DNA of 31,839 nucleotides from an uncultured Clostridia bacterium. GTDB lineage: Bacteria; Bacillota; Clostridia; Christensenellales; Aristaeellaceae. The notes under the pieces were generated by a model. It was not told where the DNA came from. It did no database searches and saw nothing but the letters and a program-made list of their open reading frames with translations. The translations under genes were made by a program, and so were the position numbers. Position 1 is the stretch's first letter. Every line of letters begins with the position of its first letter. Location of the stretch: the NCBI GenBank assembly GCA_937907055.1, contig CALCTW010000008.1, forward strand, positions 1 through 31,839. The letters are read 5' to 3'. Positions 3,401 to 30,433 of this stretch are shown here, in pieces.

Positions 3401-5734
3401 TCATGCCTTTTCCGGCTCGGGAGAGTTGAGAAGAAGGTTCAGTTTTTCAAGCGCGGGCACCGCCTGCTTCAGCAGCTGCTCGGCATCCAGACGGCCGTCA
3501 CGCAGCAAAAGCCCAGTTTCACGGCCCATGGACAGCATGAGGCGCTTATCCGCCTTCGCGGCGGCATCATACAGGGCCGTCGGTTCCAGCTTCGTGTCCT
3601 TATCGAAGCGCATGACCAGTGAGCCGTTCATGTGCGTGATGCGGTTGATGCCCAGCCTGCGGGCTTCGGCACGCGCGTGCGCGATCTCGATCAGATTGAC
3701 GACACACTGCGGCGGCTCGGCAAAGCGGTCGATGATCTCCTCCAGCACATCCTCGCGGTCCTCCCGGTTATCGATGGCCGCGATGCGCTTGTAGATCTCC
3801 ATGCGCTGGGCCGCGCCGGATACATAATTGGACGGCAGATAGGCATCGATCTTGAGCTCGATCTTGGTCTCAACACGCTTGGCGACCTGTTCGCCGTTCC
3901 CGGCGCGGGCCTCGCGCACAGCCTCCTCAATGAGCTTGCAGTACATATCATAACCCACCTGAGAGACATTGCCGCTCTGCTCGGGACCGAAGATATTGCC
4001 CGCGCCGCGGATCTCCAGATCGCGCATGGCGATGCGGAAGCCGCTGCCGAAGGCGGTGAACTCACGGATGGCATCCAGACGCTTCTGCGCGGTCTCGCTG
4101 AGCATCTTATCCGCGCGGACGGTGAAATAGGCGTACGCCGCGCGTGTGGAACGGCCGACACGGCCGCGGAGCTGATAAAGCTGACTGAGACCGAAATGAT
4201 CCGCGTCATAGATGATCATGGTATTGGCGTTGGGCACATCCAGACCGTTCTCGATGATGGTGGTGCACAGCAGTACATCGAACTTGCCTTCATAGAAGTC
4301 CAGCATCACGTCTTCCAGCTGCTGTTCCTTCATCTGACCGTGGCCGATCGCGATCCTGGCCTCCGGCACAAGCGCCTTCAGACGGCTGCGGAAGGCCTCG
4401 ATGGAAGAGACGCGGTTGTACAGGAAATACACCTGTCCGCCGCGGCCAAGCTCGCGCACGATGGCGTCGCGGATCACGGTCTCGTTATAATCCAGCACAA
4501 AGGTCTGCACGGGGAAACGCTCTTCCGGCGGCGTTTCCAGCAGACTCATGTCACGCACGCCCACCATGCTCATATGCAATGTGCGCGGAATGGGCGTGGC
4601 GGACAGGGTGAGCACATCCACCATGTTTTTGATGTTCTTGATGCTCTCCTTGTGACCGACACCGAAGCGCTGCTCCTCATCCACGATGAGCAGCCCCAGA
4701 TTTTTGAACTGCACATCCTTGCCCAGCAGCCGGTGCGTGCCCACCACGATATCCGTCTTGCCGGACTTGACATTTTCAAGCGTCTGCTTCTGCGCGCTGC
4801 TGTTGCGGAAACGCGACAGTACATCCACCTGGACAGGGAAGGTCTTGACACGCTTTAAAAGATTATAGTAATGCTGCTGCGCCAGAATGGTGGTCGGCGC
4901 GAGGATGGCCACCTGCTTGCCGTCCATGACGGCCTTGAAGGCGGCGCGGAAAGCGACTTCGGTCTTGCCGTAGCCCACATCGCCGCACAAAAGACGATCC
5001 ATATTGAGCGGGCTTTCCATGTCCTGCTTGATATCCCGTACGGCACGGGCCTGATCGGGCGTGAGCTCGTAGGGGAACAGATCCTCAAACTGACCCTGCC
5101 ACGGGCTGTCCGGCCCGAAGGCATAGCCGGGGTTGTTCTGACGGGAGGCGTAGAGCTGCACAAGATCAAACGCCAGCTTCTTCAGGCCGGACTTGACCTT
5201 GCTCTTGGTCTTTTCCCAGTCACCGCCGGAAAGAGAATTGATCTTCGGCGGGGTATCGGTATTGCCGATAAACTTCTGCACCCGGTCGAACTGATCGGTG
5301 GGGACATAAAGCTTATCATTGCCCTGATACTGAATGAACAGATAATCGCGGTAGGTGCCCTCTGTCTGCAGCCTGACCGTGCCGCGGAAGACGCCGACAC
5401 CGTGGCTTTCATGCACCACGTAGTCGCCTTCTTTAAGATCGGTAAACGCGTCGATCCGCTCGCCGGCGTTCCGGCGCTGACGGCGCCGCTGATGACCGGT
5501 GCCGAAGATATCCCCGTCGCCGATCAATACGAAATCCTTGCTTTCAAAGCCCTGATGCTGGGTGATGGGATAGATGGCGATATCATATTCCCTGTTTTCG
5601 GCCATCTGCTCCTCCGTAATGAAGGGCACATCCACCGAAAGCTGCTGCAGCGCGGTACGAAGGCGTTCGCCGCGGTTATCACCGCCGGAAAGCAACGCGA
5701 TCTTCTTGTTTTCTTTGCGCCAGTCCGCGATATC
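3401..5734 (-). CDS. mfd: Transcription-repair coupling factor Mfd, part downstream of the in-frame TAG (RID, DEAD/helicase translocase, TRG, D7)
   Basis: The track ORF 3401..5695 contains ...[14 protein letters not shown]...[19 protein letters not shown]...[11 protein letters not shown]...SATPIPRTL...[11 protein letters not shown]... The 13 codons 5696-5734 ([13 protein letters not shown]) are in the same frame directly after the TAG. TGA stop. Confidence 0.93.
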
Positions 5735-7006
5735 CTAAGCCAGTTCCTTGATCCGGCTGTCATAACGCGGCGCGGGCGTGCTCTCCAGCTTCAGAGGCGC
5801 GGACGCCTGATCGATCAGGCCGGAGGTGCCGTGCAGAAATTCCTGCAGGGTGATCAGGGTAAACTGTCTGAGACGCGGCAGCATCTCATCCACCGACCAC
5901 TGCGCGCCCAGCATTTCAGGCACAGCCTGACCATGCTCCATGGCAGCCTTTAATTCCTCGGCAAAGCCGGCTTCACGATCCCGGCAGCGGCCGATGGCAT
6001 TCTCAGGGTAATCAAAAACGAGCACGCAATCCTGCAGCCAGTCCGCCAGCAGCTCCGGCCGCGGATAGACCGTACCGGCCCACAGCGGCAGCTGAGAGAA
6101 CGGGAAGCCTTTCTCTGCCTCCTCCGCGTCATCCGCCATGCCGGAAAGACCGGTACGCAGCGCGCGCGGAACATTGCCGCGCTCAAAGATCACGGCAGGG
6201 TCACTTTCGGCTTCATCGCCGTCATCAAAATCAAAACGGCCGCCCTCCAGCACATCGCGGGGCAGGCGGGCGCTCTGCGCCCGGATGGCCTCCCGCATGG
6301 CAGAAGCCACACGCGCGCCCTCCCCTTCCGGGATCAGGAATTCATACGCCGGACAGATCGTGACTTCATCCAGCCGTTCATCACTGCGCTGGGAGATGCA
6401 ATCGAACCGGCGGATGGAATCGACCTCCGTATCGAAAAACTCGATACGGATGGCGGTCAGCTGATCCGGCGGGAACACATCCACGATCTCACCGCGAAGC
6501 GCGCACTGTCCGCGGCCCTCCACCATATCGGCGCGGGTATAACCGCAGCGCAGCAGCCGGTCGATCAGCACGCCCGGCTCAGTCTCATCCCCCACCCCGA
6601 TGGTGACACAGGCTTCCTTGAAACGGGCAAGGGGCATCATGGGCTGCAGCAGCGTTTCCGCCGAGATTGAGAGGAATGTGATCTCCCCCCGTACGGCGCG
6701 GGAAAGGATGGACAGACGCTGGATCTCTTTTTCGCGGCCGCCGGTCATGTGGGCGAATGTGTTTTCTCTGGCCGGCAGCATGGCCGCGCGGTCCTCCAGC
6801 CACACACCGGCGTCATCCGCCACATGCATGGCCTGCTTTTCACCGGAGGAGACATAGATCACCGGTCTGCCGGTCTCCCTGAGCGCGCGGCACGCGAAAG
6901 GAACGCGCTGTCCCTCGGACATCTCAAACAGCGCGCAGCTCTCATGATCTCTGATCTTGTCAAACGCCGCCTGCCAGGCAGGCAGCATCGCGGAAAGTAT
7001 ATTCAT
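5735..7006 (-). CDS. mfd: Transcription-repair coupling factor Mfd, N-terminal part (UvrB-homology D1-D3), ending at the in-frame TAG 5735-5737
   Basis: 423-aa ORF with the Mfd N-terminal module (...GYTRADMVEGRGQCALRGEIVDVFPP...IRIEFFDTEVDSIRRFD...). It is in the same reading frame as 3401..5734. Both parts together give 1201 codons, a normal Mfd length, and the gene lies immediately downstream of pth as in Firmicutes. Confidence 0.92.
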   Translation of the reverse strand: MNILSAMLPAWQAAFDKIRDHESCALFEMSEGQRVPFACRALRETGRPVIYVSSGEKQAMHVADDAGVWLEDRAAMLPARENTFAHMTGGREKEIQRLSILSRAVRGEITFLSISAETLLQPMMPLARFKEACVTIGVGDETEPGVLIDRLLRCGYTRADMVEGRGQCALRGEIVDVFPPDQLTAIRIEFFDTEVDSIRRFDCISQRSDERLDEVTICPAYEFLIPEGEGARVASAMREAIRAQSARLPRDVLEGGRFDFDDGDEAESDPAVIFERGNVPRALRTGLSGMADDAEEAEKGFPFSQLPLWAGTVYPRPELLADWLQDCVLVFDYPENAIGRCRDREAGFAEELKAAMEHGQAVPEMLGAQWSVDEMLPRLRQFTLITLQEFLHGTSGLIDQASAPLKLESTPAPRYDSRIKELA

Positions 7007-7026: not shown

Positions 7027-7629
7027 TTACAGCGTATCGGGAACGGGCGGCTTCTGCTTGCCGGGCTTTTTATTGAAGCGATTCATCGTGGTATCGATGC
7101 CGTTCTTCACCCAGCACAGCACGGCATCCGCCGCCAGATTATACATATCAAAAGCGATCTTGCGGTCCTCGGGCGTATCAAAGTGCCCCAGCACCCAGTC
7201 CTTCAGATCCCAGCCTTCCTTCGCCGCGCCCATGCCCAGACGGATACGCGGAAAATCGCCGCTGCCGGTGCACTGGATGATATGGCGCAACCCGTTATGC
7301 GTGCCGGGGCCGCCCTTGGCGCGCAGACGCATCTGACCGAACGGCTGATCGATATCATCCGAAAGCACGATGATATCGCTGATATCGACCTTGTACCAGT
7401 TCATGGCGTCAACGAACGTGAAGCCGGAAAGATTCATATAGGTCTGCGGCTTGATGAGCACGATCTTTTCGCCCTCATAGACGCCTTCGCCCACTGTGGC
7501 GCGGCACTTGAGTTTTTTGACCGGAATAAAAAGCCGGTCGGAGAGGATATCGATCACATCCCAGCCCGCGTTGTGACGGGTGTGCTGATATTCATTGCCC
7601 GGATTGCCCAGGCCGATAATAAGCTTCAT
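7027..7629 (-). CDS. pth: Peptidyl-tRNA hydrolase
   Basis: 200-aa ORF beginning MKLIIGLGNPGNEYQHTRHNAGW... and continuing ...MNLSG...VLSDDIDQPFGQMRLRAKGG.GTHNGL. The pth-mfd arrangement is conserved. TAA stop. Confidence 0.95.
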   Translation of the reverse strand: MKLIIGLGNPGNEYQHTRHNAGWDVIDILSDRLFIPVKKLKCRATVGEGVYEGEKIVLIKPQTYMNLSGFTFVDAMNWYKVDISDIIVLSDDIDQPFGQMRLRAKGGPGTHNGLRHIIQCTGSGDFPRIRLGMGAAKEGWDLKDWVLGHFDTPEDRKIAFDMYNLAADAVLCWVKNGIDTTMNRFNKKPGKQKPPVPDTL

Positions 7630-7644
7630 ACTGTTTCCCCCGGA

Positions 7645-9465
7645 TCAGGCATGCTCGGTATACATGCTGTACAGTTCGTGATAGATGCCCTTCTTCGCCA
7701 TCAGTTCCTCATGCGTGCCGGTCTCCTCCACGCCCTTATCCGTCAGCACCCAGATCTCATCGGCGTTGCGGATGGTGGTGAGACGGTGCGCGATGGTGAA
7801 GGTGGTGCGGCCCTTCGCCAGCAGCTCAAGCGACTGCTGCACAAGCAGCTCGCTCTCGTTATCGAGCGCGCTGGTGGCTTCGTCCAGAATCAGGATGGGC
7901 GGATTCTTCAGGAATACACGGGCGATGGAAAGACGCTGCTTCTGTCCGCCGGAGAGCTTGACGCCGCGCTCGCCGATGTAGGTCTCATAGCCGTCGGGAA
8001 GACCCAGGATGAATTCATGCGCGCCGGCGCGCTTAGCCGCCAGCTCCACTTCCTCGCGGGTGGCATCGGGCTTGCCGTAGATGATATTATCCATGACCGT
8101 GCCGCTGAAGAGATAAACATCCTGCTGCACCATGCCGATGGAATTGCGCAGCGAATGCTGAGTGACCTTGCGGATATCCGTGCCGTCGATGAGGATGGCG
8201 CCGCGCGTGACATCAAAGAAGCGTGGGATCAGATTGCAGAGCGTGGTCTTGCCCGAACCGCTGGGGCCGACGATGGCGATATTCCGTCCGGCTGCCACCT
8301 TCTGATCCACATCGCCCAGAACCTCGCGGTCCGCGGCGTCATTGTAGTGGAAGCCCACATGATCAAACACCACTTCGCCCTTCACATCTGTCATTTCCAC
8401 AGCGTCGGGCGCGTCGCTGATCTCCTGCGGGGCATCCATGACCTCGCAGAAGCGCTCGATACCCGTCATGCCGCGCTGGAACTGCTCGGTAAACTCCACG
8501 ATGCGGCGGATGGAATTGATGAGCGTGCCGATATACAGCAGATAGGCCACATAGGTGCCCACATCGATCCAGCCCTTGGCGAGGAAAACGGCGCCGGCCA
8601 CTACGACCACGATATTCATCAGCGCGTCAAACACGCGGGTGACCGTGTTGAAGCCCGCCATGTAGTGATACTGCTTCTTTTTGAGGCTGAGGAACAGGAA
8701 ATTGCCCTTGCGGAACTTTTCCTTTTCGATCTCCTCATTGGCGAAGGACTTGACCACCCGGATGCCGAGCAGACTGTCCTCCACCTGTGAATTGATCTCA
8801 CCCACCTGATGACGGCATTCCTGCATGGAGCCGCGCAGGCGCCTGCCGAAGTAACGGGTGCCCAGCCCCATAAAGGGCAGGAACACAAACACCAGCAGCG
8901 TGAGCCATACATTCATGGAGGAAAGAATGATGAAGGCAGCCACGATCTTGATGCCCGCGATGAGGAATTCCTCCGGGCAGTGATGCGCGAACTCGGTCAC
9001 CTCGAAAAGGTCGCTGGTGATGCGGGCCATGAGCTGACCGATCTTGGTGTTATTATAATAGGAAAAAGACAATTGCTGCAGATGGCCGAACAGATCGTTT
9101 CGCATATCGGTCTCGATGCGGCTGCCCATGATATGGCCCCAGGACTGCATGTAGTAGTTGGCGGACGCGTCGATCACACGCAGCACGATATACAGCAAGG
9201 CCAGACGGACGAGCCACGGCAGCCAGTCCATGCCGAGCCCGGCAGTATACGCCACGATGCCGCCCTCCGAGGTGGCCGCGTTGGTGACCGCCTTGATGAT
9301 GAGCGGCGAAACGACCTCACAAAGGCAGGTAAAGGACGCGCAGAACAGATCAAACACGAGCGCGCCGCGGTAACGGCGAAAATACGGCAGGAAACGGCGG
9401 AACAATTCCCTCAGTTTCATTTTATGCGCCGTACCCTTGACAGCCTGTCCCTTTGATTGTGCCAT
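7645..9465 (-). CDS. ABC transporter, fused permease/ATP-binding protein (type I exporter, MsbA/multidrug-like)
   Basis: 606-aa ORF with an N-terminal 6-TM domain, then Walker A GPSGSGKTT, the signature LSGGQKQRLSIAR, and Walker B ILILDEATSALD. AAGGAGG RBS, TGA stop. Confidence 0.93.
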   Translation of the reverse strand: MAQSKGQAVKGTAHKMKLRELFRRFLPYFRRYRGALVFDLFCASFTCLCEVVSPLIIKAVTNAATSEGGIVAYTAGLGMDWLPWLVRLALLYIVLRVIDASANYYMQSWGHIMGSRIETDMRNDLFGHLQQLSFSYYNNTKIGQLMARITSDLFEVTEFAHHCPEEFLIAGIKIVAAFIILSSMNVWLTLLVFVFLPFMGLGTRYFGRRLRGSMQECRHQVGEINSQVEDSLLGIRVVKSFANEEIEKEKFRKGNFLFLSLKKKQYHYMAGFNTVTRVFDALMNIVVVVAGAVFLAKGWIDVGTYVAYLLYIGTLINSIRRIVEFTEQFQRGMTGIERFCEVMDAPQEISDAPDAVEMTDVKGEVVFDHVGFHYNDAADREVLGDVDQKVAAGRNIAIVGPSGSGKTTLCNLIPRFFDVTRGAILIDGTDIRKVTQHSLRNSIGMVQQDVYLFSGTVMDNIIYGKPDATREEVELAAKRAGAHEFILGLPDGYETYIGERGVKLSGGQKQRLSIARVFLKNPPILILDEATSALDNESELLVQQSLELLAKGRTTFTIAHRLTTIRNADEIWVLTDKGVEETGTHEELMAKKGIYHELYSMYTEHA

Positions 9466-9514: not shown

Positions 9515-10132
9515 TTATAAAACACCGGTCAGATCAAACGGCGGCGTATAGCTTTTTTCCGCCGCTTCTTTTTCCTGCGTGAAGCCCGTGAGCCCCAGGG
9601 CCTCGAACCGCTCCAGCACGCGCTCATACTCCCGGTCATTCACGCGCCGGTCCAGCGGAGACGGCAGCGAAACACCCTCCGGCGGCGTATACTGCCGCAT
9701 CAGGGAGACCGGGATCCGCGGGCAGTTGGCGGCGATCCACTCCAGCACACGGAGCGAATCCATGGTGCAGCCGGGCAGCACCAGATGACGGATGAGGGTG
9801 CCCTTCTTCATGAGACCGTCGTCATCATAGACCGGCGCGCCGGTCTGACGGATCATCTCAAGAATAGCTCCCGAGGCATTCTCGAAATAATCGGGCGCGC
9901 CGCAGCAGAGCTGCGCGATCCTGGGCGAAAAATGCTTGAGATCCGGCAGATAGATATCAATGATACCATCCAGCGCCTTTAAGGTCTCCTCCCGCTCATA
10001 GCCGGAGGTGTTCCACAGAAGCGGAACAGCCGGGCGGTAGATCTTCAAAGCCTTCAGGACCTGCGGCACGAAATGCGTGCCGGTGACAAAATTGATGTTA
10101 TGCACCCCGGCCGCCTCCAGACGGCGCAGGAT
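9515..10132 (-). CDS. Radical SAM protein, PflX/pyruvate formate-lyase-activase-like, part downstream of the in-frame TAG
   Basis: The track ORF 9515..10105 (..HNINFVTGTHFVPQVLKAL...WNTSGYE...DIYLPDLKHFS...LIRHLVLPG...) plus in-frame codons ILRRLEAAG directly after the TAG. TAA stop. Confidence 0.85.
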   Translation of the reverse strand: MLRRLEAAGVHNINFVTGTHFVPQVLKALKIYRPAVPLLWNTSGYEREETLKALDGIIDIYLPDLKHFSPRIAQLCCGAPDYFENASGAILEMIRQTGAPVYDDDGLMKKGTLIRHLVLPGCTMDSLRVLEWIAANCPRIPVSLMRQYTPPEGVSLPSPLDRRVNDREYERVLERFEALGLTGFTQEKEAAEKSYTPPFDLTGVL

Positions 10133-10384
10133 CTATGCCAGGGCTTCCGGCGAGACCTGCTTGCCGGCGCGTCCCCGGCTGATCTCCTGATTCTGGCAGA
10201 AGATGCACTTGAGCGTACAGCCGGCGAAAAAAACAGCGCCGCTGCCGCGGGTGCCGCTGATACACGGCTCCTCCCACAGATGCGGCGCCGCCCGGGCCAC
10301 CAGCATCTCATCCGTACAGGCACAAAAACCTTCGGCGGTTTTCCTGTCCGCCCCGCACCGGCGGGGACAAAGATCGCATTTCAT
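10133..10384 (-). CDS. Radical SAM protein, N-terminal part with the CxxxCxxC cluster, ending at the in-frame TAG 10133-10135
   Basis: I start at ATG 10384 (MKCDLCPRRCGADR...), which has GGAGG 9 nt upstream. It contains the radical-SAM motif GCTLKCIFCQN. It is in the same frame as 9515..10132, and together they give 289 codons, the normal length for this family. Confidence 0.85.
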   Translation of the reverse strand: MKCDLCPRRCGADRKTAEGFCACTDEMLVARAAPHLWEEPCISGTRGSGAVFFAGCTLKCIFCQNQEISRGRAGKQVSPEALA

Positions 10385-10430
10385 TGTTGGCAGCCTCCGG
10401 GGCGATCCCCTGTCATGCTTGCAAAAAAAC

Positions 10431-11327
10431 TTACTGCGCGGTGAATACGAATTCCGCGCACGCGGGCGCGATATTGGCTTCCTCATCGGCAACGATCGTC
10501 ACCACGGAAGCGCTCTTGAGCCGGTAGCCCGGCAGGAGAGACAGATCCGCCCTGACAGCGGCGAAGCTGCCGGTGCGGACGATCACGGAAGAGGCATACA
10601 GAACTTCCTTTTCGCCGTGATCAAAGGTGACGTAGCGTACGGGCACCTCGATCTCCTCCGGGATGTGTGGCGAATGATACAGGAAGGTGACGACCGCGGG
10701 ATAGGCCTTCCCCTGTGTGTACAGCACCTGCACACGATCCTCTCCGGTGCGCGTGAAGCCTTCCGGAACAAGACTGTCATCCGGCGTGATGATCTGCGTG
10801 CGGGTGATCTGCATTTCCGTTTCCCAAAAGGCGACCCCGAACTGATCCTGATAACGGACGCGCACGGCAGCCGGGGCAAAAACGGTCTGCGCGGCCTGGG
10901 GCGCGGGCGTAGGCGTTGCTTCTTCCTTACGCGCGGGATCGCCTTCATACAGCAGCCACTGCGTGGCGCTTCCGGCGATGCCGTCGGCGATCAGCCCGTT
11001 GGCCTTCTGAAAATCGATCACGGCATTGCGTGTCATCGTTCCGAAGGAGCCGTCCGCCCTGCCGGTCAGATATCCCAGATCGATCAGCGCCTGCTGAAGC
11101 GCCTTGACCTTATCCCCGCGGCTGCCCTCGGAAAGCGAAGCGTAATAGGTGGGCACTTTGGTGGGGGCGGGCGTCGGCGCGGGGGTGGCAGTGGGGACCG
11201 GGGTCACAACAGCGGTGGCCTGCGCGACGGGCGTCGGCTGACTGACCGGCATGCTGATGACCTCCGTCGCTGCACCCTGCGCGGACAGCAGCGCCATATA
11301 GACGATCAGAACCCTGATAAGATCCAT
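10431..11327 (-). CDS. Secreted peptidoglycan-binding (PG_binding_1) domain protein with a Pro/Thr-rich linker and an uncharacterised C-terminal domain
   Basis: 298-aa ORF with a signal peptide (MDLIRVLIVYMALLSAQGAA), a PT-rich linker, and a PG_binding_1 pattern (GDKVKALQQALIDLGYL..ADGSFG..T..AV..FQKANGL.ADGIAG..T). AGGAG RBS, TAA stop. Confidence 0.8.
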   Translation of the reverse strand: MDLIRVLIVYMALLSAQGAATEVISMPVSQPTPVAQATAVVTPVPTATPAPTPAPTKVPTYYASLSEGSRGDKVKALQQALIDLGYLTGRADGSFGTMTRNAVIDFQKANGLIADGIAGSATQWLLYEGDPARKEEATPTPAPQAAQTVFAPAAVRVRYQDQFGVAFWETEMQITRTQIITPDDSLVPEGFTRTGEDRVQVLYTQGKAYPAVVTFLYHSPHIPEEIEVPVRYVTFDHGEKEVLYASSVIVRTGSFAAVRADLSLLPGYRLKSASVVTIVADEEANIAPACAEFVFTAQ

Positions 11328-16462: not shown

Positions 16463-16516
16463 TGCCGCCGCTGACCGCAACGGTAAACAGGACCCCAACG
16501 AAAATGAAGTAAATAG

Positions 16517-16560
16517 AAAACAGCTGTGCCGGCATATGATCCGGTACAGCTGTTTTAGCG
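16517..16560 (+). terminator. Rho-independent terminator (copy 2 of the repeated hairpin)
   Basis: aaaacagctgtgccgg, loop catatgat, ccggtacagctgtttt. The stem is 16 bp with one G-U pair. Confidence 0.8.
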
Positions 16561-16598
16561 TGCTGAGGGTGAGTATAACGGCGTGAAGGCGGAAGAAA

Positions 16599-16855
16599 AA
16601 CGGCGCGAGGATTCACGGGAACCATATTCAGGACCGTGTGAAACAGCAAAGGTGATAACAGGCACCGCGCGTCATGATCATCCAGCCGGACAGCCGTATG
16701 GGATGATGACCGGTGATCAGGGATCAGTCAAAATATTTTCTGAGGGGCCAGGCATCGCGGAAGTCAAAGCGCTTTTCAAAAAAGCCGCTGCACTTACCGA
16801 TGATGAAGCCATTGAGCAGGGCGCACACGACCGTACCGGCCTTGACACCTTGAAA
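16599..16855. repeat. Left copy of a 257-bp direct repeat (13 mismatches against 17956..18212, no indels)
   Basis: Aligned by hand. The offset is exactly 1357 bp at both ends. Confidence 0.9.
16724..16855 (-). pseudogene. Orphan 3' fragment (last 43 codons plus stop) of a YczE-like membrane-protein gene
   Basis: The reverse strand translates to FQGVKAGTVVCALLNGFIIGKCSGFFEKRFDFRDAWPLRKYFD*, compared with the intact gene end FEGVKAGTVVCALLNGFIIGKCSGFFEKRFDFRDAWPFRKYFD*. There is no upstream coding continuation, because the AT-rich islet begins at 16856. Confidence 0.85.
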
Positions 16856-16859
16856 TTCC

Positions 16860-17276
16860 TTATTCTATCGAAATATAGATTCCAAGTCCCCCTTCAGATG
16901 CAGAAATACTCAAAATCACATTATCTTTTTTTAAGACAACACCAATTGCAACATCTTCTTTTTTATCAAGAACGCTATGATATCCTAAGTCTTTTAATCC
17001 CTCTATATATTTTCCTGCTTCTTCCATGCTTATATCAGAATAGAAAACTGCGTATTTTCCATTATCACTATCATCTATCACATAATCAGCAATTCCGAAA
17101 GAAGGCTTTATGATATTATCAGTGAATCTGTTTTCAGGCCACTCAGCTATTTCTACTATTCTTTCTTCAAGATTCGTATTTGATTTATTCACTTCATTCT
17201 TTGGTAAACCACAGCCCGTCATTAACATCAGCGTAAAAAAGCACAACAATAACAAAATGCTCAACTTACTCTTCAT
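16860..17276 (-). CDS. Hypothetical lipoprotein (AT-rich islet gene)
   Basis: 138-aa ORF with a signal peptide and lipobox-like LMLMTGC (MKSKLSILLLLCFFTLMLMTGCGLP). It overlaps the upstream XRE gene by 11 nt. Composition is clearly AT-rich relative to the flanks. Confidence 0.75.
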   Translation of the reverse strand: MKSKLSILLLLCFFTLMLMTGCGLPKNEVNKSNTNLEERIVEIAEWPENRFTDNIIKPSFGIADYVIDDSDNGKYAVFYSDISMEEAGKYIEGLKDLGYHSVLDKKEDVAIGVVLKKDNVILSISASEGGLGIYISIE

Positions 17277-17820
17277 CTTTCTTCCTCACATTCTCTCTGA
17301 ATAATCTTACAAATAGAAATCCTCCAACTGTGACCAATACTGTGCCAATCACTAATATTGACATTGAAAGCATATTGGGGCTTGTTGACTCAATATAGAT
17401 ATTAGTCAGTGCATCAGCTTGTCCAATAATACCCGATGAAGAAACCTTCTTACTTATAATAAATCCGATATCACAAATAATGAACCCCGACACAATCAAA
17501 AGAATGGCTCTTATAAATCTTCGTTTTAGTCTGTTTTTTTCATAATCTGCAATAATTATTGAAGCTTCTATCGCATTATCTGCTTCTTTATGTGTTATTT
17601 CTTCCTTGTCACTGATTCTACATTGTATAACTTCCATAAGGCTTAATCCAAACACTTTAGAGATATCCTCGAACTTTGACACCTCCGGAAGACAAAGCGA
17701 GCGTTCCCACTTACTAACAGCAGCGGTAGACACATTTAATTTTACGGCAAGTTGCGTCTGTGTCATATTTTTTCTTTTTCTTAGGTCTGTTAAAAACGGT
17801 CCGAATTCTTGTGGTACCAT
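17266..17820 (-). CDS. Membrane-anchored XRE-family helix-turn-helix transcriptional regulator
   Basis: The track ORF starts at GTG 17829, but that GTG is part of GGAGGTG. I prefer ATG 17820 (MVPQEFGPFLTDLRKRKNMTQTQLAVKLNVSTAAVSKWERSLCLPEV...), which has a typical HTH_3 motif followed by two predicted TM helices. Confidence 0.8.
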   Translation of the reverse strand: MVPQEFGPFLTDLRKRKNMTQTQLAVKLNVSTAAVSKWERSLCLPEVSKFEDISKVFGLSLMEVIQCRISDKEEITHKEADNAIEASIIIADYEKNRLKRRFIRAILLIVSGFIICDIGFIISKKVSSSGIIGQADALTNIYIESTSPNMLSMSILVIGTVLVTVGGFLFVRLFRENVRKKDEE

Positions 17821-17955
17821 TCTTATCACCTCCCAAGAAAAAATACCATTTCACTAAATATTAGTAAAACGACCTATGGTTGAATTGTAGTAGAATCAAG
17901 TTTTATCGTATGTATAAGCGGTTAATTCTAATATTTCTGCTGCACCCTCTTGCAG

Positions 17956-20608: not shown

Positions 20609-23416
20609 ATGAAGAATCGAAAATTCGGCACTGGTCTGCGCGCTGCGATCCTCGCGTTCCTGATCGCGGTGATTCTGTTCGTATTGCCTGTGCTGACCGG
20701 CTCCGCCGCGCAGGCCGCGTCGAATTCCTATGTGAAGACGAATCAGGCCTCCGTCAATTTCAGAAAAGGAGCAAACCTGTCCTCCGACGTGTGGGCATCC
20801 CTGCCCAGCGGCTGGGTGCTGAAGTATAACGGCACCAGCATCAAGGACGGCGGCTATACCTGGCTGAGCGTGACCGCCAATATTCCCGGACATCTGTACA
20901 CCAACTATTCCGGCTATATTTCCTCTTCCTTTGTGACCACGCTGACCACCGCGGAAGCCAACCAGTGGGAGAGCTACCCCGTGCAGAAGGGCTGCACCCC
21001 CAGCCCCGTTCCGGCGGTATCCGGCAGCTATGCCATCATCACCGCGGACGGCGTTAACATGCGCTCCTACGCGCCCGGCGGCGATGTGATGTGCGTGATC
21101 AAGCAGAATGTGGTCGTGCGCGTCATCAGCGCGCCCACCAACAGCTACGGCTGGTTCTATATCAACTACAACAATATGAACGGCTATGTGTGGAACGAGT
21201 TCGCCCGTCTGCTCACCGATGAAGAGCTGATCCAGCGCGGCCTGATGACCGCCACGCCCTCCTTCGTGACCGCGACGCCCACGCATTCCTCCGGCAGCGG
21301 CGACGGCATCTGCAAACTGGCCAAGGACGCTGTTCGTTTCCGTTCGACCCCGAACGGCAATATCATCGCCACCCTTTCCAAGGGCACCACGTTCACCTAC
21401 TGGGGCACCGGCACCATGGGCAGCGACGGTTATCTGTGGTTCCAGGTCTCCTACAACGGCACGATGGGCTATGTGCGTAAGGACATGCTGACCTTCCTTG
21501 ATCCCAGCGGCAAGGTGACCACGGCTCCCACCATTTCAAAGAACACCCCCACTCCGGCCCCCACCACCACGGTGATCCCGGACGCGACCGAGTATGTGAT
21601 CCTGACGGCCGGCGGCATCAACTTCCGCAGGACCGCGGGCGGTGACATTCTGGGCCGCCTTGACAAGGGCACGATCCTGCCCTATCACGGCACCGACAAC
21701 ACCGGCAAGTGGGCGCTGGTATATTCCAATATCTATGGTCTTGGCTATGTGAGCACCGATTATACCAAGAAGTATAATCCTCCCGGCAGCAACACACCCA
21801 CGCCCGCGCCTGTCGTGACGCCCACCCCGGCGCCTCTCACGAACGGTTATGTGCTGATCACCAAGAACGCCGTCAACCTGCGCGCGCAGACTTCCACCTC
21901 CTCCAATGTTGTGGCGCAGCTGAGCAACGGCACGGTCTGCTATCTGACGCAACCGCCGATCATGTCCGGCAGCTATATGTGGTATCCCGTGCGCACCATG
22001 AATAACTTAAACGGCTATGTGCGCGGCGATGTGGCCTATGTGCTGGCTGACTGGCAGGTGCAGTATTATCTGCAGCACGGCGTTGTGCCCACGCCTTCCG
22101 CCGGACCTACCTCCACCCCCAGCGGCAACAGCCCGTATATCCGCATCACAGCTTCCGGCACGATCAATGTGCGTTCCTCTTCCACCACCACCAGCAGCGT
22201 GGTCGGCACCACCTCCAACGGACGCGTGTACAAGTATCTGGCCACCGCCAAGGTCGGCAGCTACACCTGGTACAAGATCCAGTACACCTCCTCCAAGGTG
22301 GGCTGGGTGCGCAATGATCTGATGAAGGTAATGAGCTGGGCGGAATATTACGCCTGGGCCGGAACCGCTACCCCCACCAAGGGCAACACCGTATCCCCCG
22401 TGATCACACCTTCTGTGACCTCTCCCTATTCCTCCGATCTGAGCGATATGGCCGTGACCACCGTTGAGGGCCTGAATGTCCGCAGCGGCGCCGGTACCAG
22501 CTTTACCCGCGTGGGCAACATCAGCGCAAAGGGCACTTATGTGACCTACCTGCAGAAGTCTTCCACCGTGGGCAATGAGACCTGGTACTTTATCGAATCC
22601 GGCAATATGCAGGGTTGGGTCCTCAGCAAGTACATCAACATCTACACCAACCGTCAGAAGACGGCTTACCTGCAGAGCGGCGATCCTTATGTGATCCCCG
22701 AAGCCAGCTACACCACGCTGAGCCTTGGCAGCACCGGCAATGCCGTGACCGTTCTCCAGAAGGAACTGGTGACCAAGGGCTACCTGAGCGCCGCTGATGT
22801 GACCGGTCAGTACCTGAGCAGCACGGTGAACGCCGTGAAGCAGTTCCAGGCTGCCAAGGGCCTGACTGTGGACGGCATCGCGGGTGACGCCACCCAGCAC
22901 GCGCTGTTCAACACCGTTCCCGCCGGCTCCAATCAGGGCAGCACGGTCATTCCCGACCTGAAGCCCGTTGAAATGGTCGACTGGGTGACCGGTGATATCC
23001 AGAAGGTGTGGCTGAAGGGTGAAACTGCCATCGTCACCGATGTTGAGACCGGCCTTTCCTTCCGCGCGAGGCGCTGGAGCGGCGGTCTGCACGCTGACGT
23101 TGAGCCGCTGACCGCGGCTGACTCCGCTGTGATGTGCAAGATCTACGGCGTTTCCATCGCCCAGGATATCGCGGACCTGAATCTGTATCAGCGTCATCCC
23201 ATCTGGGTCACCATCGCCAACCGTACCTTCGCGGCTTCCATGTATGGCTGCCCGCACAACTATCCCGAGGGAGACACGATCCCCGATAACAACTTCTACG
23301 GTCAGTTCTGCATTCACTTTGTGAACAGCCGTGTCCACCGTACTGAAAAGATCGATGCCGATCATCAGGCCGCGATCAAGTATGCTTATCAGCACAGCAT
23401 CAGCGGACAGAAGTAA
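20609..23416 (+). CDS. Large secreted cell-wall-associated protein: about 9 SH3b (SH3_3) repeats, a PG_binding_1 domain and an uncharacterised C-terminal domain of about 190 aa
   Basis: I start at ATG 20609 (MKNRKFGTGLRAAILAFLIAVILFVLPVLTGSAAQA, a signal peptide). SH3b-like modules recur (..VNMRS......V...K....V.V.......GW..I.YN...GYV....). PT-rich linkers separate them. The PG_binding_1 domain reads LSLGSTGNAVTVLQKELVTKGYL...VKQFQAAKGLTVDGIAGDATQHALF. TAA stop plus a terminator. Confidence 0.85.
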   Translation: MKNRKFGTGLRAAILAFLIAVILFVLPVLTGSAAQAASNSYVKTNQASVNFRKGANLSSDVWASLPSGWVLKYNGTSIKDGGYTWLSVTANIPGHLYTNYSGYISSSFVTTLTTAEANQWESYPVQKGCTPSPVPAVSGSYAIITADGVNMRSYAPGGDVMCVIKQNVVVRVISAPTNSYGWFYINYNNMNGYVWNEFARLLTDEELIQRGLMTATPSFVTATPTHSSGSGDGICKLAKDAVRFRSTPNGNIIATLSKGTTFTYWGTGTMGSDGYLWFQVSYNGTMGYVRKDMLTFLDPSGKVTTAPTISKNTPTPAPTTTVIPDATEYVILTAGGINFRRTAGGDILGRLDKGTILPYHGTDNTGKWALVYSNIYGLGYVSTDYTKKYNPPGSNTPTPAPVVTPTPAPLTNGYVLITKNAVNLRAQTSTSSNVVAQLSNGTVCYLTQPPIMSGSYMWYPVRTMNNLNGYVRGDVAYVLADWQVQYYLQHGVVPTPSAGPTSTPSGNSPYIRITASGTINVRSSSTTTSSVVGTTSNGRVYKYLATAKVGSYTWYKIQYTSSKVGWVRNDLMKVMSWAEYYAWAGTATPTKGNTVSPVITPSVTSPYSSDLSDMAVTTVEGLNVRSGAGTSFTRVGNISAKGTYVTYLQKSSTVGNETWYFIESGNMQGWVLSKYINIYTNRQKTAYLQSGDPYVIPEASYTTLSLGSTGNAVTVLQKELVTKGYLSAADVTGQYLSSTVNAVKQFQAAKGLTVDGIAGDATQHALFNTVPAGSNQGSTVIPDLKPVEMVDWVTGDIQKVWLKGETAIVTDVETGLSFRARRWSGGLHADVEPLTAADSAVMCKIYGVSIAQDIADLNLYQRHPIWVTIANRTFAASMYGCPHNYPEGDTIPDNNFYGQFCIHFVNSRVHRTEKIDADHQAAIKYAYQHSISGQK

Positions 23417-23436
23417 GAAGTAGAACAATTTTCCTG

Positions 23437-23468
23437 CCGCGCCGCGAAAACGGCGCGGTTTTTGTTTT
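23437..23468 (+). terminator. Rho-independent terminator
   Basis: ccgcgccg, loop cgaaaa, cggcgcgg, then tttttgtttt. Confidence 0.85.
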
Positions 23469-23542
23469 GCCGAAACAGTTTCAATTTCAAACAGGCGTTT
23501 CTCATGCCCTTCCCATTTTTCGTGGCGAATCGATGAAAAATA

Positions 23543-23551
23543 TGTTATACT
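23543..23551 (+). promoter_or_regulatory. Extended -10 (TGtTATACT) upstream of the LRR surface-protein gene
   Basis: aatatgttatactgtc lies about 55 nt upstream of ATG 23606. Confidence 0.35.
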
Positions 23552-23605
23552 GTCATCAGAATGCAGACAGTAACTGCCGGAGGCAAAACAATAGGAGGAA
23601 CAACG

Positions 23606-24040
23606 ATGAAAACAAAGCTGATGTGCATAGCGCTGCTGGTGATGACCCTGCTGATGACGGCCTTCACCGCATCAGCCGATGACGGCGGAAGCTTTAGTGA
23701 TAACCTGACCTGGGCATTCGATGCCGCGAACAATACGCTGACGATCTCGGGCAGCGGGAATATGGAAGACTTCAGTTCTGTTTCGCTGCCCCCGTGGTAT
23801 GATCATACCGACATGATCAAAACAGTCATCATCGAACCAGGTGTGACGAGCATCGGAGCTTATGCCTTCTATTCTGCGGAAGCGGAAACAGTCTATGCTG
23901 CCGACAGCGTGACGAGCATCGGCGAGTATGCATTTTTCCGGAGCAAGCTGAAGAGCTTCCATATGCCGTCCGGCATCCGGAGCATTGGCTCCTCCGCATT
24001 TTTTTGGCTCAGCTTGAACAACTGTCCATCGGCGATCTGA
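23606..24040 (+). CDS. BspA-like leucine-rich-repeat surface protein, N-terminal fragment (signal peptide plus first LRRs), truncated by a frameshift at the T7 run 23999-24005
   Basis: ATG 23606 with AGGAGG at 23593-23598. The product begins MKTKLMCIALLVMTLLMTAFTASADD...NLTWAFDAANNTLTISGSGNM...VTSIGAYAF...VTSIGEYAF...IRSIGSSAFF, then reads 11 out-of-frame codons and TGA. Confidence 0.8.
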   Translation: MKTKLMCIALLVMTLLMTAFTASADDGGSFSDNLTWAFDAANNTLTISGSGNMEDFSSVSLPPWYDHTDMIKTVIIEPGVTSIGAYAFYSAEAETVYAADSVTSIGEYAFFRSKLKSFHMPSGIRSIGSSAFFWLSLNNCPSAI

Positions 24041-27000
24041 AAGCCTATCTGAACTGCAACTACACGGATGAATACGCGTGGCCGCTATACAGCGTGTCAG
24101 AGCCGGTCACGCTTATCGTGAATGGCAATGAAGCGACCGTTCTGGAGATCCCGGAGGGCGTCAGCCAGATCGGTGATTTTGCCTTTTTCCATTGTAAGAG
24201 TATTACCGACCTGAAGATCCCGGAGGGCGTGCTGAGGATCGGCTGCAATGCTTTCTGTGACTGTACCAATCTGGTCGAGGTTTCTATGCCGGCGTCACTG
24301 AAAACGATCGGCGATGGAGCGTTTGCCAACACAGACAATATCCGCCGGGTCAGCATTGCCAGCATTGAATCCTGGCTGAATCTATCATTTGAAAACGAGT
24401 ATGATACCTGGTCGCTCCCGAACTGGATCAACGGCAGTAACATAAAGGACATGCGTCTATACCTGAATGGGCAGGAATTGACGGAGATCCAGATTCCCGG
24501 AAGCATCAAGACCATTCGCAGAAACGCTTTTGAGAATTTCGATCGTATCTCCCGCGTAGTCATCAATGAAGGCGTTGCCCGCATTGAAGAAAATGCTTTC
24601 GCGCACATGAGCGGACTGAAGACCCTGAGCCTGCCTGCCAGCATCCAATCGATCGCTCCCACTGCTTTTTGGAGTTCATTGGAGATTGACAGCTTGCTGC
24701 TGAGTGACCTGACAGCCTATCTGACCAGCATGCCCGCGGAAAATGACAACTATCATGGCATTCTGGGTGAGAACGGGCAGGTTTGGCTGAACGGCAAAGA
24801 GCTGTTCGATCTGATCATCCCTGAGGGTTTCACGCGCGTTCCTGCTAATGCCTTCTACAATTGGACCAATCTGCGCACGATTTCAATGCCCAATACCCTG
24901 CAGACCATCGGCACAAATGCGTTTTACCATTGTTCCTCGGTCAGCAAGATCGTGATCCCCGGCGGTGTGACGAGCATTGGAAATTCCGCGTTCAGCAGAT
25001 GCAACGGCTTGCAGGAACTGTCTCTGCCTGCCAGCCTGACAAGTGTCGGCAGTCATTGCTTTGGCGGAAGCGTCAGCAGACTGGACCTCGAAAGCCTCGA
25101 AGCGTATCTGAATTGCAGCTATGGTACCAACAGTGCGCCGCTTGAAGGTGGCACGAGCGGCCGTGCCATCTATGTGAACGGCGAGCTGCTGACCCAGGTC
25201 ATCATCCCCGATACGGTACAGAAGGTGCCCCCGCATGCATTTGATAATTGCCGTGATATAACGGAGGTCATTTTTGCCGGACCAACCACTGAGATCGATG
25301 AATACGCGTTCTTCTTCTGCAGCGGTCTGAAAACGATTGAGCTTCCCGCAGGCCTGCAAACGATCCGAAAATTAGCATTTGCATATTCCGGACTCGAATC
25401 GGTCTACATCCCGGACAGCACAACCAAAATCGAGCATCAGGTCTTTTCCCAGTGTGAAAAGCTGAGCCGTGTCAGCCTGCCTGCCAGTGTGGTCATCGAC
25501 CAGAATGCCTTCCCGGGTTCGTATACCCCGCTCGAGGTAGATTACCACGGCGATCGTATCGACGCCGCGAATCTGCTGGTGCTGGGACCATGGAACGAAG
25601 CATTGACCAACCCCGACGCAGTCTGGCACTATCGCCCGAACGGCAAGTGCGGCGAAGACCTGACCTGGGTCATTGATGACAGCGGCACACTGATCATCAG
25701 CGGTACCGGCGAAATGACTGCTTATACCGCCAGCCTGCAGCCCTGGGATCCGAAGGCGTTCAGCCGGGTCAGGATCGAAGAGGGCGTGACCACCATCAGC
25801 GACTACGCGTTTTATAACGCTCCGGTCGACATCATTCAGCTGCCCGAGTCGATGGAGACCTTCGGCGTTCACATCGTGACCTCTCATCCCATCGTGCTCT
25901 GCCCGGAATTCAGCAATGCCGATTATTGGGCATACTCCAACCAGTTTGAGACTGTCTATTCCGATCAGCTGGACATGGATCCGTTCTTCCGGGAGCATGG
26001 AAATATCGAGTTGTTCAGCGACACTACGCTGTACCGCGGCACCGTACACCGAATCACAGCCTGCGTGTTCCCGCTTGAAGCAAATGAGCTCCTGAAGTGG
26101 ACCTCCTCCGACCCAACCGTAGCCGAGGTGGATCAGAACGGTCAGGTGACTGCCGTCAACCATGGCCGAGCTGTCATCACGGCAGAATATGCCGGTGTTT
26201 CGGACTGCGTGACCGTGACAGTCAACAATTTTGAGGATGTGGGCGTGATCCACATGGACGAAACGCCGGAATTCCTCCGGCTGGGTGAAACGCTGCAGTT
26301 GTCTTTCCGCACCGTACCTCAGGATAACAGCCTCACATTCACCTATACCAGCACAGACAGCAGCGTCCTTGACGTTGACGCCAATGGTAAGGTGACCGCA
26401 GTCGGTCACGGCTATGCCTGCGTCTGGGTAGAGGCAGAAGGTGTGACCGCGGCAACCGGCCCCATCTATGTCTATACCCCCATTACAGATGTGACCCTCC
26501 CTGAAGAATTCTGGGGCGTGGCAAAGTCCTTCACGCAGATACACTGGGACATTGAGCCTGCAAACGCGAACCCCCTCTGGATCTGGACCTCGGAGCATTC
26601 CGCCCACGCAGCAGTGACGGTTTCCGAGGATGGACTGGTGAGCTGTTTCGTGCCCGGTGATATCACCATCACCATGACGGACAGGATCACCGGTCTCAGC
26701 GCTTCAACGCTGGTGCATGTCTGCCGTCCGGTCACATCCATCGAGATGCCGGAGGAGCTTACCTTTGCGGAATGCACACGATCCTACCAGTTCGAGTCTG
26801 TGGCCGTGACCATGAACGCGCGCTACATCAACCATCTGATCGTTTACACCAGTGACGACAACAACGTGGCAACCGTGACCGATGACGGCCTGATGACGAT
26901 CGTGGGACCCGGTACGGTGAATATCACCACCCGGGCCGAGAGCGGTGTATCAGCCTCCTGCAAGGTAACGATCCTGCCGGAGCACGACCGTAAAACGACG

Positions 27001-27714
27001 ACTCCCGCAGTTCTTCCCACCTGTGTGGATACGGGCAACACCGAATACTTTACCTGCGATGATTGCGGCGCATTCTTTGGATTGGTTAACGACGAATATG
27101 TAAGCATTGAGGAAAACAGCTGGATCGTTCCCGCGATTAATCACCAGCATTGGGAAAAGGCCGATGTGACAGCTGTCGAGCCCACCTGCACCGAAGACGG
27201 CTGCATGGAATACGCTGTATGCGATGATTGCGGCGCCTATTTGCTGGTGGAGGATGAAACGGTGACAGTGATCGAGGAAAACAGCTGGATCATTCCGGCG
27301 CCGGGTCATACTGAGGTCGTTGATGAAGCGATCGCGCCTACCTGCACCGAAACAGGCCTGACTGAGGGCAGCCACTGTACTGCCTGTCAGGAAGTATTTG
27401 TTGCCCAGGAGATCCTCCCTGCCACACACCGTCATGTGATGCAGTCCGGCGCGTGCTGCACCTGCGGCCGGTCATTCGACACAACAGGCGCGAAGGTGCT
27501 CACACTTCCTTCCCTGCTCACAAGCATTGCTGACAATGCCTTCGAAGGAATCTTCGCGGAGATCGTTGTGATCCCAGCCGGGTGCACGAAGATCGGCGAA
27601 CGTGCCTTTGCCGATTGCGCCGCGTTGCGGTATGTGTTCATGCCCGCGGACATCGACATTCATGACAGCGCGTTTGATGGCTGCGAGAATACGATCGAGT
27701 TTATCATCCAATAA
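24004..27714 (+). CDS. BspA-like LRR (LRR_5) / Big_2 / Cys-rich-repeat surface protein, main body (continues 23606..24003 if the T-run is 8 rather than 7)
   Basis: 1236-aa ORF. It has many IP.GV..IG..AF..C..L LRR_5 units and about 4 Big_2-like modules (e.g. TSSDPTVAEVDQNGQVTAVNHGRAVITAEY). Three PTC..(T/E).G....C..CG Cys-rich repeats lie around 27000-27480, followed by terminal LRRs. TAA stop plus a terminator. Confidence 0.88.
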   Translation: MAQLEQLSIGDLKAYLNCNYTDEYAWPLYSVSEPVTLIVNGNEATVLEIPEGVSQIGDFAFFHCKSITDLKIPEGVLRIGCNAFCDCTNLVEVSMPASLKTIGDGAFANTDNIRRVSIASIESWLNLSFENEYDTWSLPNWINGSNIKDMRLYLNGQELTEIQIPGSIKTIRRNAFENFDRISRVVINEGVARIEENAFAHMSGLKTLSLPASIQSIAPTAFWSSLEIDSLLLSDLTAYLTSMPAENDNYHGILGENGQVWLNGKELFDLIIPEGFTRVPANAFYNWTNLRTISMPNTLQTIGTNAFYHCSSVSKIVIPGGVTSIGNSAFSRCNGLQELSLPASLTSVGSHCFGGSVSRLDLESLEAYLNCSYGTNSAPLEGGTSGRAIYVNGELLTQVIIPDTVQKVPPHAFDNCRDITEVIFAGPTTEIDEYAFFFCSGLKTIELPAGLQTIRKLAFAYSGLESVYIPDSTTKIEHQVFSQCEKLSRVSLPASVVIDQNAFPGSYTPLEVDYHGDRIDAANLLVLGPWNEALTNPDAVWHYRPNGKCGEDLTWVIDDSGTLIISGTGEMTAYTASLQPWDPKAFSRVRIEEGVTTISDYAFYNAPVDIIQLPESMETFGVHIVTSHPIVLCPEFSNADYWAYSNQFETVYSDQLDMDPFFREHGNIELFSDTTLYRGTVHRITACVFPLEANELLKWTSSDPTVAEVDQNGQVTAVNHGRAVITAEYAGVSDCVTVTVNNFEDVGVIHMDETPEFLRLGETLQLSFRTVPQDNSLTFTYTSTDSSVLDVDANGKVTAVGHGYACVWVEAEGVTAATGPIYVYTPITDVTLPEEFWGVAKSFTQIHWDIEPANANPLWIWTSEHSAHAAVTVSEDGLVSCFVPGDITITMTDRITGLSASTLVHVCRPVTSIEMPEELTFAECTRSYQFESVAVTMNARYINHLIVYTSDDNNVATVTDDGLMTIVGPGTVNITTRAESGVSASCKVTILPEHDRKTTTPAVLPTCVDTGNTEYFTCDDCGAFFGLVNDEYVSIEENSWIVPAINHQHWEKADVTAVEPTCTEDGCMEYAVCDDCGAYLLVEDETVTVIEENSWIIPAPGHTEVVDEAIAPTCTETGLTEGSHCTACQEVFVAQEILPATHRHVMQSGACCTCGRSFDTTGAKVLTLPSLLTSIADNAFEGIFAEIVVIPAGCTKIGERAFADCAALRYVFMPADIDIHDSAFDGCENTIEFIIQ

Positions 27715-27728
27715 TTCAGAAAACATCC

Positions 27729-27762
27729 ATACCGCAGACGGAACTTCCGCTGCGGTATTTTT
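27729..27762 (+). terminator. Rho-independent terminator
   Basis: ataccgcag, a 12-nt loop, ctgcggtat, then tttt. Confidence 0.8.
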
Positions 27763-27958
27763 GCGCGCCATCGTGAATGAACTCCATGATACAAGCATTC
27801 ATTTCTCGTGTTCCGCAAGGAATCTGCTTCCCGGCTTTCTTATCGTAACCTATGTATGACACTCGCAGACAAAACAGTTTCAATTTCAACAGACCCTATT
27901 GACAATCAAATAAAAAGAATTATCATTAATACCGACAATCAACAAAGGAGAAAGAAAT

Positions 27959-29062: not shown

Positions 29063-29213
29063 ATCTGTTCTTTTAAGAAAAACGGAAGGGTGTTCTGCTG
29101 ATATAACCCTAAAACCGTACGACCGGTAATGCATATCAACAATGTCAAGAAAACGGGGCAATTGATATCATAAATAATCAATTCACATTGAATACAACAA
29201 TGAGGGAAAAAGC

Positions 29214-30317: not shown

Positions 30318-30327
30318 ACACACAAAG

Positions 30328-30358
30328 CCCGGAAGAGAGAACCTCTTCCGGATTTTTT
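30328..30358 (+). terminator. Rho-independent terminator
   Basis: ccggaagag, loop agaac, ctcttccgg, then a ttttttt. Confidence 0.85.
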
Positions 30359-30388
30359 TATGGACAGAAACAGAATGAGAAGAATGTA

Positions 30389-30417
30389 TTGAAAAATGCG
30401 TTTTTTTCCGTTACAAT
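30389..30417 (+). promoter_or_regulatory. Sigma-70-like promoter TTGAAA-17-TACAAT for the riboswitch-folT unit
   Basis: ttgaaa at 30389-30394, a 17-nt spacer, tacaat at 30412-30417. Confidence 0.6.
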
Positions 30418-30433
30418 GCACATAACGGCCTAA

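Follow-up and report, generated by a model that had tools for sequence, protein, structure and literature searches.

A TAG codon fixed within a radical SAM gene suggests that an uncultured Clostridia bacterium reads TAG as an amino acid

Introduction

Does a TAG in the middle of a conserved bacterial gene mark a broken gene, or can it be a codon that is translated? The question is raised by a radical SAM gene on contig CALCTW010000008.1 (assembly GCA_937907055.1) of an uncultured Clostridia bacterium of the Aristaeellaceae. We analysed the whole 31,839-nucleotide stretch, here called the window, together with related DNA from other assemblies.

The known bacterial reassignments of stop codons all concern UGA (codes 4 and 25), with loss of RF2, and none concerns UAG (PMC8629427, PMC13462651); no description of a bacterial UAG reassignment was found in the literature searched. 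TAG is read as glutamine, under translation table 15, in phages and prophages of the gut (crAss-like, Lak, Garnet, Topaz; 10.1101/2021.08.26.457843; PMC9523058). Gut Clostridia harbour such TAG-recoded prophages, and TAG-recoded phages often carry suppressor tRNAs (10.1101/2021.08.26.457843). Near-cognate Gln and Tyr tRNAs read UAG in recoded E. coli from which RF1 has been deleted (PMC6207430), and in archaeal genetic code 34 every TAG is read as pyrrolysine, with Pyl machinery and proteomic proof (10.1101/2024.09.30.615893). Conserved in-frame stops under purifying selection, TAG/CAG polymorphism among them, have also been described in bacteria that use the standard code (Belinky et al. 2021, PMC7918605).

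The fixed TAG described here, together with three others in about 40 genes, suggests that TAG is translated as an amino acid in this bacterium; pyrrolysine aside, this is undescribed in a free-living bacterium.

Results

The minus-strand ORFs 10133..10492 and 9515..10105 share a common frame, and translation of 9515..10384 through the TAG gives MKCDLCPRRC...CTLKCIFCQNQEISRGRAGKQVSPEALA*ILRRLEAAGVHNINF..., with a single internal stop. This bears out the original prediction that the two ORFs form one gene of 289 codons, a normal length for its family: radical SAM homologues from related uncultured Clostridia are 288-292 aa long and show 71-72% identity to the read-through protein over its full length. 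The read-through protein matches Pfam Radical_SAM (PF04055) with 51.7 bits against a cut-off of 29.5, and Fer4_12 is also matched. Across 67 homologues Cys56, Cys60 and Cys63 of the cluster motif are unchanged, and in an extra N-terminal Cys-rich segment C3, C6, C10 and C21 are invariant. Assignment as PflA proper was rejected, the PflA equivalog TIGR02493 scoring 28.9 bits, far under its cut-off of 231.75, and we regard the protein as a homologue. No glycyl-radical enzyme gene was found near the radical SAM gene, whose neighbours encode a PG_binding_1 protein, an ABC transporter, pth and mfd.

Table 1. Positions of the genes, codons and elements discussed in the text (window coordinates, except where a locus is named)
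Feature	Position	Strand	Remarks
PFL-activase-like (PflX-type) radical SAM gene	9515..10384	minus	289 codons, ATG 10384, TAA 9515..9517, one in-frame TAG
In-frame TAG, codon 84 of the radical SAM gene	10133..10135	minus	From translation and conspecific loci
CX3CX2C cluster motif (Cys56/Cys60/Cys63)	10196..10219	minus	5' of the TAG; invariant in homologue alignment
GGAGG, 8 nt, then GTG	10103..10118	minus	Possible restart, nine codons past the radical SAM TAG; start of the 196-aa fragment in gene calls
pth and ABC transporter gene	7027..9465	minus	Between the two TAG-bearing genes; tightly packed, both intact
mfd (transcription-repair coupling factor)	3401..7006	minus	1201 codons; Pfam UvrB_inter, CarD_TRCF_RID, DEAD, Helicase_C, TRCF
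In-frame TAG, mfd codon 424	5735..5737	minus	In 9/9 conspecific loci
CAG (Gln427) in SH3_3/PG_binding wall-protein gene 20609..23416	21887..21889	plus	TAG in sibling strain
TAG in SH3_3 wall-protein gene, sibling strain	locus L089 8097..8099		
TAG in SDH_alpha-family gene, sibling strain	locus L096 12339..12341		
THF riboswitch (Rfam RF01831, 79 bits)	30436..30547	plus	5' of ECF-transporter S-component gene 30672..31415

As a structural proxy we used the AlphaFold model of the closest intact homologue (P0002, 72% identical; pLDDT 95.6, pTM 0.93). The model is a partial (beta/alpha)6 barrel that lies closest to PFL-AE, with 3C8F as its best PDB match (E 6e-10, TM 0.61/0.70), and this makes the earlier label "PflX-like" a fair one. 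The TAG column is located midway along helix alpha1 (79-91), past strand beta1 and the cluster loop and ahead of beta2. Because the protein forms a single partial barrel whose helix alpha1 is interrupted by the TAG, neither of the two fragments can be a complete enzyme or a folding unit, in agreement with the earlier suggestion that the TAG parts the cluster motif, with its three cysteines upstream, from the rest of the barrel. The expectation of an acidic or polar residue at this column was likewise correct: 119 close homologues have D in 101 cases, E in 17 and A in 1, and D and E also lead among 116 diverse representatives of the family (E38, D34, A11, K8, G6, R5, Q5, N4). The 196-aa gene downstream of the TAG was called in all assemblies.

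Conspecific contigs were found by looking up exact proteins together with their neighbouring genes (ERZ27247138, a 100-kb contig; ERZ27247132; ERZ27247179; GCA_045628485.1; and several Logan runs). Being 97.8-98.3% identical to the window DNA, they represent other strains of one species. The radical SAM TAG was present in 7/7 conspecific loci covering the site, and the assemblies that carry it (ENA ERZ27247138 and ERZ27247132, Logan SRR14246005 and SRR21151017, and the window contig) represent at least five independent samples and assemblers. All sister strains keep the TAG, with GAG or CAG in none of them and no further lesions in the gene. Since both flanking ORFs fit one family in one frame and the TAG recurs in every covering assembly, it is the product of neither chance nor error. 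It predates the common ancestor of the sampled strains, as does the mfd TAG (dS about 0.07-0.09).

Among 5.8 billion protein clusters the species was present solely as the 196-aa C-terminal fragment, in nine sequence variants, and a full-length homologue of the radical SAM protein above 72% identity was absent. The species was not represented among the GTDB representatives, where the best mfd match reached 70% and covered the C-terminal part, and it was not found in the metagenome collection, which returned unrelated ABC homologues only. Its nearest relatives are Christensenellaceae-like MAGs with 60-72% protein identity.

A survey of 38 genes across 23 conspecific loci revealed four internal stops, all of them TAG, in the radical SAM gene, in mfd, in an SDH_alpha-like gene and in the gene of an SH3 wall protein; no internal TAA or TGA and no disrupting frameshift was found in the same genes and loci. 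The mfd gene aligns across its TAG to Thermus Mfd (6M6A), and the residue at its TAG column is K both in Thermus Mfd and in the nearest relative, and S, N, G, D, A or T in other sequences. The other two TAGs are polymorphic within the species. In the gene of the secreted SH3_3 wall protein, ERZ27247138 and ERZ27247132 have the TAG allele, and the window and a Logan strain read CAG; the SDH_alpha-family gene has TAG in the same two assemblies and CAG in the NCBI MAG. Of the four sites, two are CAG in conspecific strains, the radical SAM column is D/E and the mfd column is variable. All four TAGs occupy substitution-tolerant positions.

The set of in-frame TAGs in the species is small, with four sites only, and subject to ascertainment bias, the window having been picked for containing in-frame TAGs; its density comes to about 1 per 3,000 codons. 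In relatives (58-72% identical proteins), one in-frame TAG was found in about 168 genes, within a transposase-like ORF. The latter is a PDDEXK_2 transposase-like ORF of a red-deer Christensenellaceae MAG (locus L012, 14004..14849; ..YDLEV*RAD..), and the position of its TAG is one at which we take the PDDEXK_2 family to have a conserved Gln.

Four of the 39 gene calls on the 100-kb contig end in TAG, and all four are internal interruptions. Among about 47 genes of this species, not one has TAG as its true terminator (TAG use in relatives about 3% of stops, P about 0.24), and the lack of TAG terminators is underpowered as evidence, since relatives themselves end only about 3% of genes in TAG. 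That all four lesions are TAG also carries little weight. Among the Gln codons in 35 genes (L089, L096, L001) we counted 336 CAG and 13 CAA, and because of this codon usage 55-66% of random nonsense mutations would yield TAG (P 0.1-0.2). The informative signals are instead how densely the in-frame TAGs occur, how long they have persisted under normal constraint and that no other lesion was found.

Substitutions were counted between the window and the ERZ27247138 strain. Within the 196 codons past the radical SAM TAG, 14 synonymous and 3 non-synonymous changes were found (146 and 442 sites), giving a dN/dS of about 0.07 (binomial P against neutrality about 1e-6), so that the downstream part, whose selection pattern had been proposed as a check, is clearly constrained. 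The mfd gene shows 22 synonymous and 2 non-synonymous changes 5' of its TAG and 33 and 6, respectively, 3' of it, with 2 and 0 in codons 425-467. With values of 0.05-0.07, dN/dS in the TAG-bearing genes is as low as in uninterrupted genes. Because the parts past the TAGs have stayed in frame and constrained since before the common ancestor of the strains, a decaying pseudogene is excluded for both the radical SAM gene and mfd, and it is from these selection patterns that we infer read-through. Differences between CAG and TAG numbered 1 against a neutral C<->T expectation of 8.8, and 1 against 3.1, or about 0.1-0.3 of the neutral rate, which suggests that a change between CAG and TAG is tolerated like a missense change, unlike a knockout.

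The four TAGs stand in the contexts CTG GCA TAG ATC (radical SAM), CTG GCT TAG GAT (mfd), CGC GCT TAG ACT (SH3) and GTC CAG TAG GGC (SDH_alpha-like). The longer stretches on which the original prediction had based a common 5' context, GAA GCC CTG GCA TAG in the radical SAM gene and GAA CTG GCT TAG in mfd, match the sequence, and the proposal survives in part: an Ala codon GCA or GCT lies 5' of 3/4 TAGs (10136..10138, 5738..5740 and L089 8094..8096), whereas Leu at -2 and the upstream Glu are not general (CGC GCT TAG, GTC CAG TAG). The Leu-Ala of the radical SAM gene is itself no signal, because it is conserved protein sequence, with L in 119/119 and A in 112/119 close homologues, and the same conservation accounts for the upstream Glu of this gene.

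Relatives have GCC or GCG at the -1 position of the radical SAM gene. Together GCA and GCT account for 130 of 12,044 codons (1.1%) and for 12% of Ala codons, and their occurrence ahead of 3/4 TAGs has a P of about 5e-6 in a post hoc test. In the SH3 gene the CAG alleles read GCG CAG and the TAG allele GCT TAG, the wobble base of the Ala codon having changed along with the TAG, and this looks like selection for read-through efficiency. The GCA/GCT bias could come from context selection for read-through or from a dinucleotide mutation process. A purine after UAG favours amber suppression, and a purine follows directly after all four TAGs.

The 3' contexts had been put forward for comparison as possibly sharing structure. 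Folding of the 103 nt past each TAG revealed no shared or stable 3' RNA structure (z-scores -1.3, +0.5, -0.2 and +0.6), and this, together with the absence of a common motif, argues against a SECIS- or PYLIS-like cis-element. In a table-15-like code decoding would be independent of context; here GCA/GCT precedes 3/4 TAGs and a purine follows 4/4. Such a need for context fits decoding in competition with the release factor better than complete, context-free reassignment.

ARAGORN and Rfam detected no tRNA gene in the window and the conspecific loci (~60 kb), where the THF riboswitch was the only RNA element detected, and prfA does not lie within the ~60 kb of species DNA. A 'tRNA-Stop (tta)' call by ARAGORN in a relative (L013, 7406..7491) was rejected as spurious, since it falls within a long ORF and Rfam gives no tRNA match for it.

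The loci also showed several further features. Two insertions, at about 16500..17950 and about 23400..30600, are strain-specific and have no counterpart in the ERZ27247138 strain. A low-GC segment carrying an HTH_3 gene makes up one of them, and a viral scan with the low-GC island gene gave no matches. The other is a 7-kb island that contains a leucine-rich repeat gene and tandem paralogues of 367 aa (27959..29062 and 29214..30317) with no Pfam match. The repeat gene encodes a BspA-type LRR_5/Big_2 surface protein and is split between two frames (23537..24040 and 24004..27714) at a run of seven T (23999..24005); phase variation, a frameshift or an error in the homopolymer could account for the split. 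In AddA the nuclease domain at the C-terminus forms a separate call of 188 aa (L089, 20061..20744), with a frame that runs open as far as the retrieved DNA extends, and AddA is probably interrupted further upstream. Between L100 and L096, recJ differs by two compensating 1-nt indels, with a C-terminal protein identity of 90% despite DNA identity of 97.9%.

Discussion

Our main reading, to which we give a probability of about one half, is that TAG codon 84 is a genuine, fixed codon that is translated through to a full-length radical SAM enzyme of 289 residues, by amber suppression at the level of the organism, and that it belongs to a genome-wide set of such TAGs. UAG would be read through organism-wide, most likely as Gln, in competition with termination. 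The reader would be either a tRNA with a CUA anticodon or an abundant tRNA-Gln(CUG) that misreads UAG under weak competition from RF1, and the efficiency would be set by context, the P site being occupied by the Ala codon GCA/GCU and the UAG being followed by a purine. Read-through, amino acid, tRNA and the state of the release factor are all things we infer.

Gln is the best guess for the inserted residue because both polymorphic sites alternate with CAG, although CAG to TAG is also merely the commonest mutational route to TAG, and the acidic radical SAM column, with Q in 5/116 representatives, is a counterpoint. Since CAG outnumbers CAA by 336 to 13, most Gln tRNA is probably tRNA-Gln(CUG), the natural candidate for reading UAG as a near-cognate codon. 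A bolder version, which we offer only tentatively, holds that this is the first free-living bacterium found to capture UAG as Gln. A dedicated CUA-tRNA, possibly acquired from a TAG-recoded temperate phage, would act with a weakened or lost RF1, leaving the code in an ambiguous intermediate state in which TAG has gone from gene ends and new TAGs become fixed only in the context GCW-UAG-R.

The most serious alternative, though on balance an unlikely one, is that these are ordinary nonsense alleles under the standard code: TAG would stop most ribosomes, and spontaneous near-cognate read-through, below a few per cent, would keep non-essential genes under selection with no special machinery. Such alleles have precedent, including TAG/CAG polymorphism with dN/dS below 1 (PMC7918605). 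TAG is the expected majority nonsense class at this codon usage, two of the four sites are strain polymorphisms within one lineage, leaky termination also predicts a context bias, and the mfd, PflX-like, wall-protein and SDH_alpha-like genes are all plausibly dispensable. Against this stand the high density, with 4/38 genes affected compared with 1 in about 168 in relatives, and the two TAGs that have been kept through the diversification of the species (dS about 0.07-0.09) at a dN/dS of 0.05-0.07. The absence of frameshift, TAA or TGA lesions from the 38 genes and the change of the SH3 Ala codon along with its TAG also speak against it. Even if the leaky-nonsense explanation were right, the amber codons tolerated here would still be unusually densely clustered and would have lasted unusually long.

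It is improbable that the genes are split, translation stopping at the TAG and restarting just past it (in the radical SAM gene at GTG 10105 after GGAGG) to give two polypeptides that assemble. An SD-like GGAGG does lie 8 nt ahead of the GTG, nine codons past the radical SAM TAG, possible starts are found 6-13 codons past the three other TAGs, and gene callers give two genes in every assembly. The GGAGG, however, falls within coding sequence for a conserved L-E-A and may therefore be incidental, and in a barrel that consists of one domain the TAG breaks up helix alpha1. The SH3 wall protein is secreted, and its C-terminal half would moreover lack a signal peptide on its own, and four independent functional splits, all at TAG and with the same 5' context, are unlikely.

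Still less probable is that UAG encodes pyrrolysine as a general sense codon by means of pylT/pylS, as a bacterial counterpart of archaeal code 34. We know of no use of Pyl in this clade. No sense reading of UAG other than pyrrolysine is known to occur naturally in bacteria. Code-34 archaea resemble the present species in their low TAG use and in that each gene call ending in TAG is part of a longer gene, with the TAG inside it (10.1101/2024.09.30.615893). Those are Archaea with Pyl machinery and proteomic proof. The region examined contains no methylamine methyltransferase or pyl genes, the TAG-bearing genes are unrelated to methylamine metabolism, no structure follows the TAGs, and at both polymorphic sites the alternative codon is CAG, not AAG.

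A dead pseudogene, of which a single in-frame stop is the textbook mark, or an assembly or sequencing artefact is very improbable and is contradicted by the data, given the identical TAG in at least five independent samples and assemblers, the strong downstream purifying selection and the absence of further lesions.

If amber suppression at the level of the organism is the right reading, a close parallel lies in the table-15 phages. There too, TAGs break otherwise intact genes and standard gene calls are fragmented, and the parallel extends to the gut habitat, to hosts that include Clostridia such as Oscillospiraceae, and possibly to the equivalence of TAG with Gln/CAG and to depletion of TAG as a terminator. 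As in a table-15-like code, in-frame TAGs occur here in several unrelated intact genes, four in 38. Unlike in the phages, the TAGs lie in chromosomal housekeeping genes of a bacterium (mfd, and the ychF and pth neighbourhood) at a far lower density, about 1 per 3,000 codons; no suppressor tRNA was found in ~60 kb, and the 5' bias suggests partial rather than complete reassignment.

In E. coli strains with supE/glnV tRNA-Gln(CUA) and in RF1-deleted strains, UAG is similarly read as Gln, with or without competition from RF1 and in a context-dependent manner. Those are laboratory strains, whereas suppression in the present species would be natural and species-wide, with TAGs fixed in conserved genes.

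The cases of Belinky et al. share with ours a TAG common to related genomes, TAG/CAG alternation (here at two sites) and purifying selection on both sides. An orthologous in-frame stop in several genomes with dN/dS below 1 is found here as well, which describes a pattern and names no mechanism. Those cases are mostly short-lived and scattered, whereas about 40 genes contain four TAGs here, of which two are fixed in the species, with a common 5' codon context. The bacterial UGA reassignments are alike in that a stop codon has turned into a sense codon in a bacterial lineage.

As for the enzyme itself, it shares with PFL-AE (3C8F), its best structural match, the CX3CX2C radical SAM core. It differs from PFL-AE in adding an N-terminal Cys-rich segment, in its sub-cut-off PflA score and in having no glycyl-radical enzyme gene nearby.

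Annotation under the standard code splits roughly one gene in ten of this lineage into false fragments, and public databases already hold the resulting 83-aa and 196-aa (radical SAM) and 423-aa and 734-aa fragment 'proteins'. If confirmed, the finding would mean that a free-living bacterium is capturing UAG and has apparently come partway, to a stage that depends on context. The species would then show a living organism midway through stop-codon capture and give an unusually clear read-out of the context rules of UAG read-through, and it would bear on the interplay between TAG-recoded phages and their hosts.
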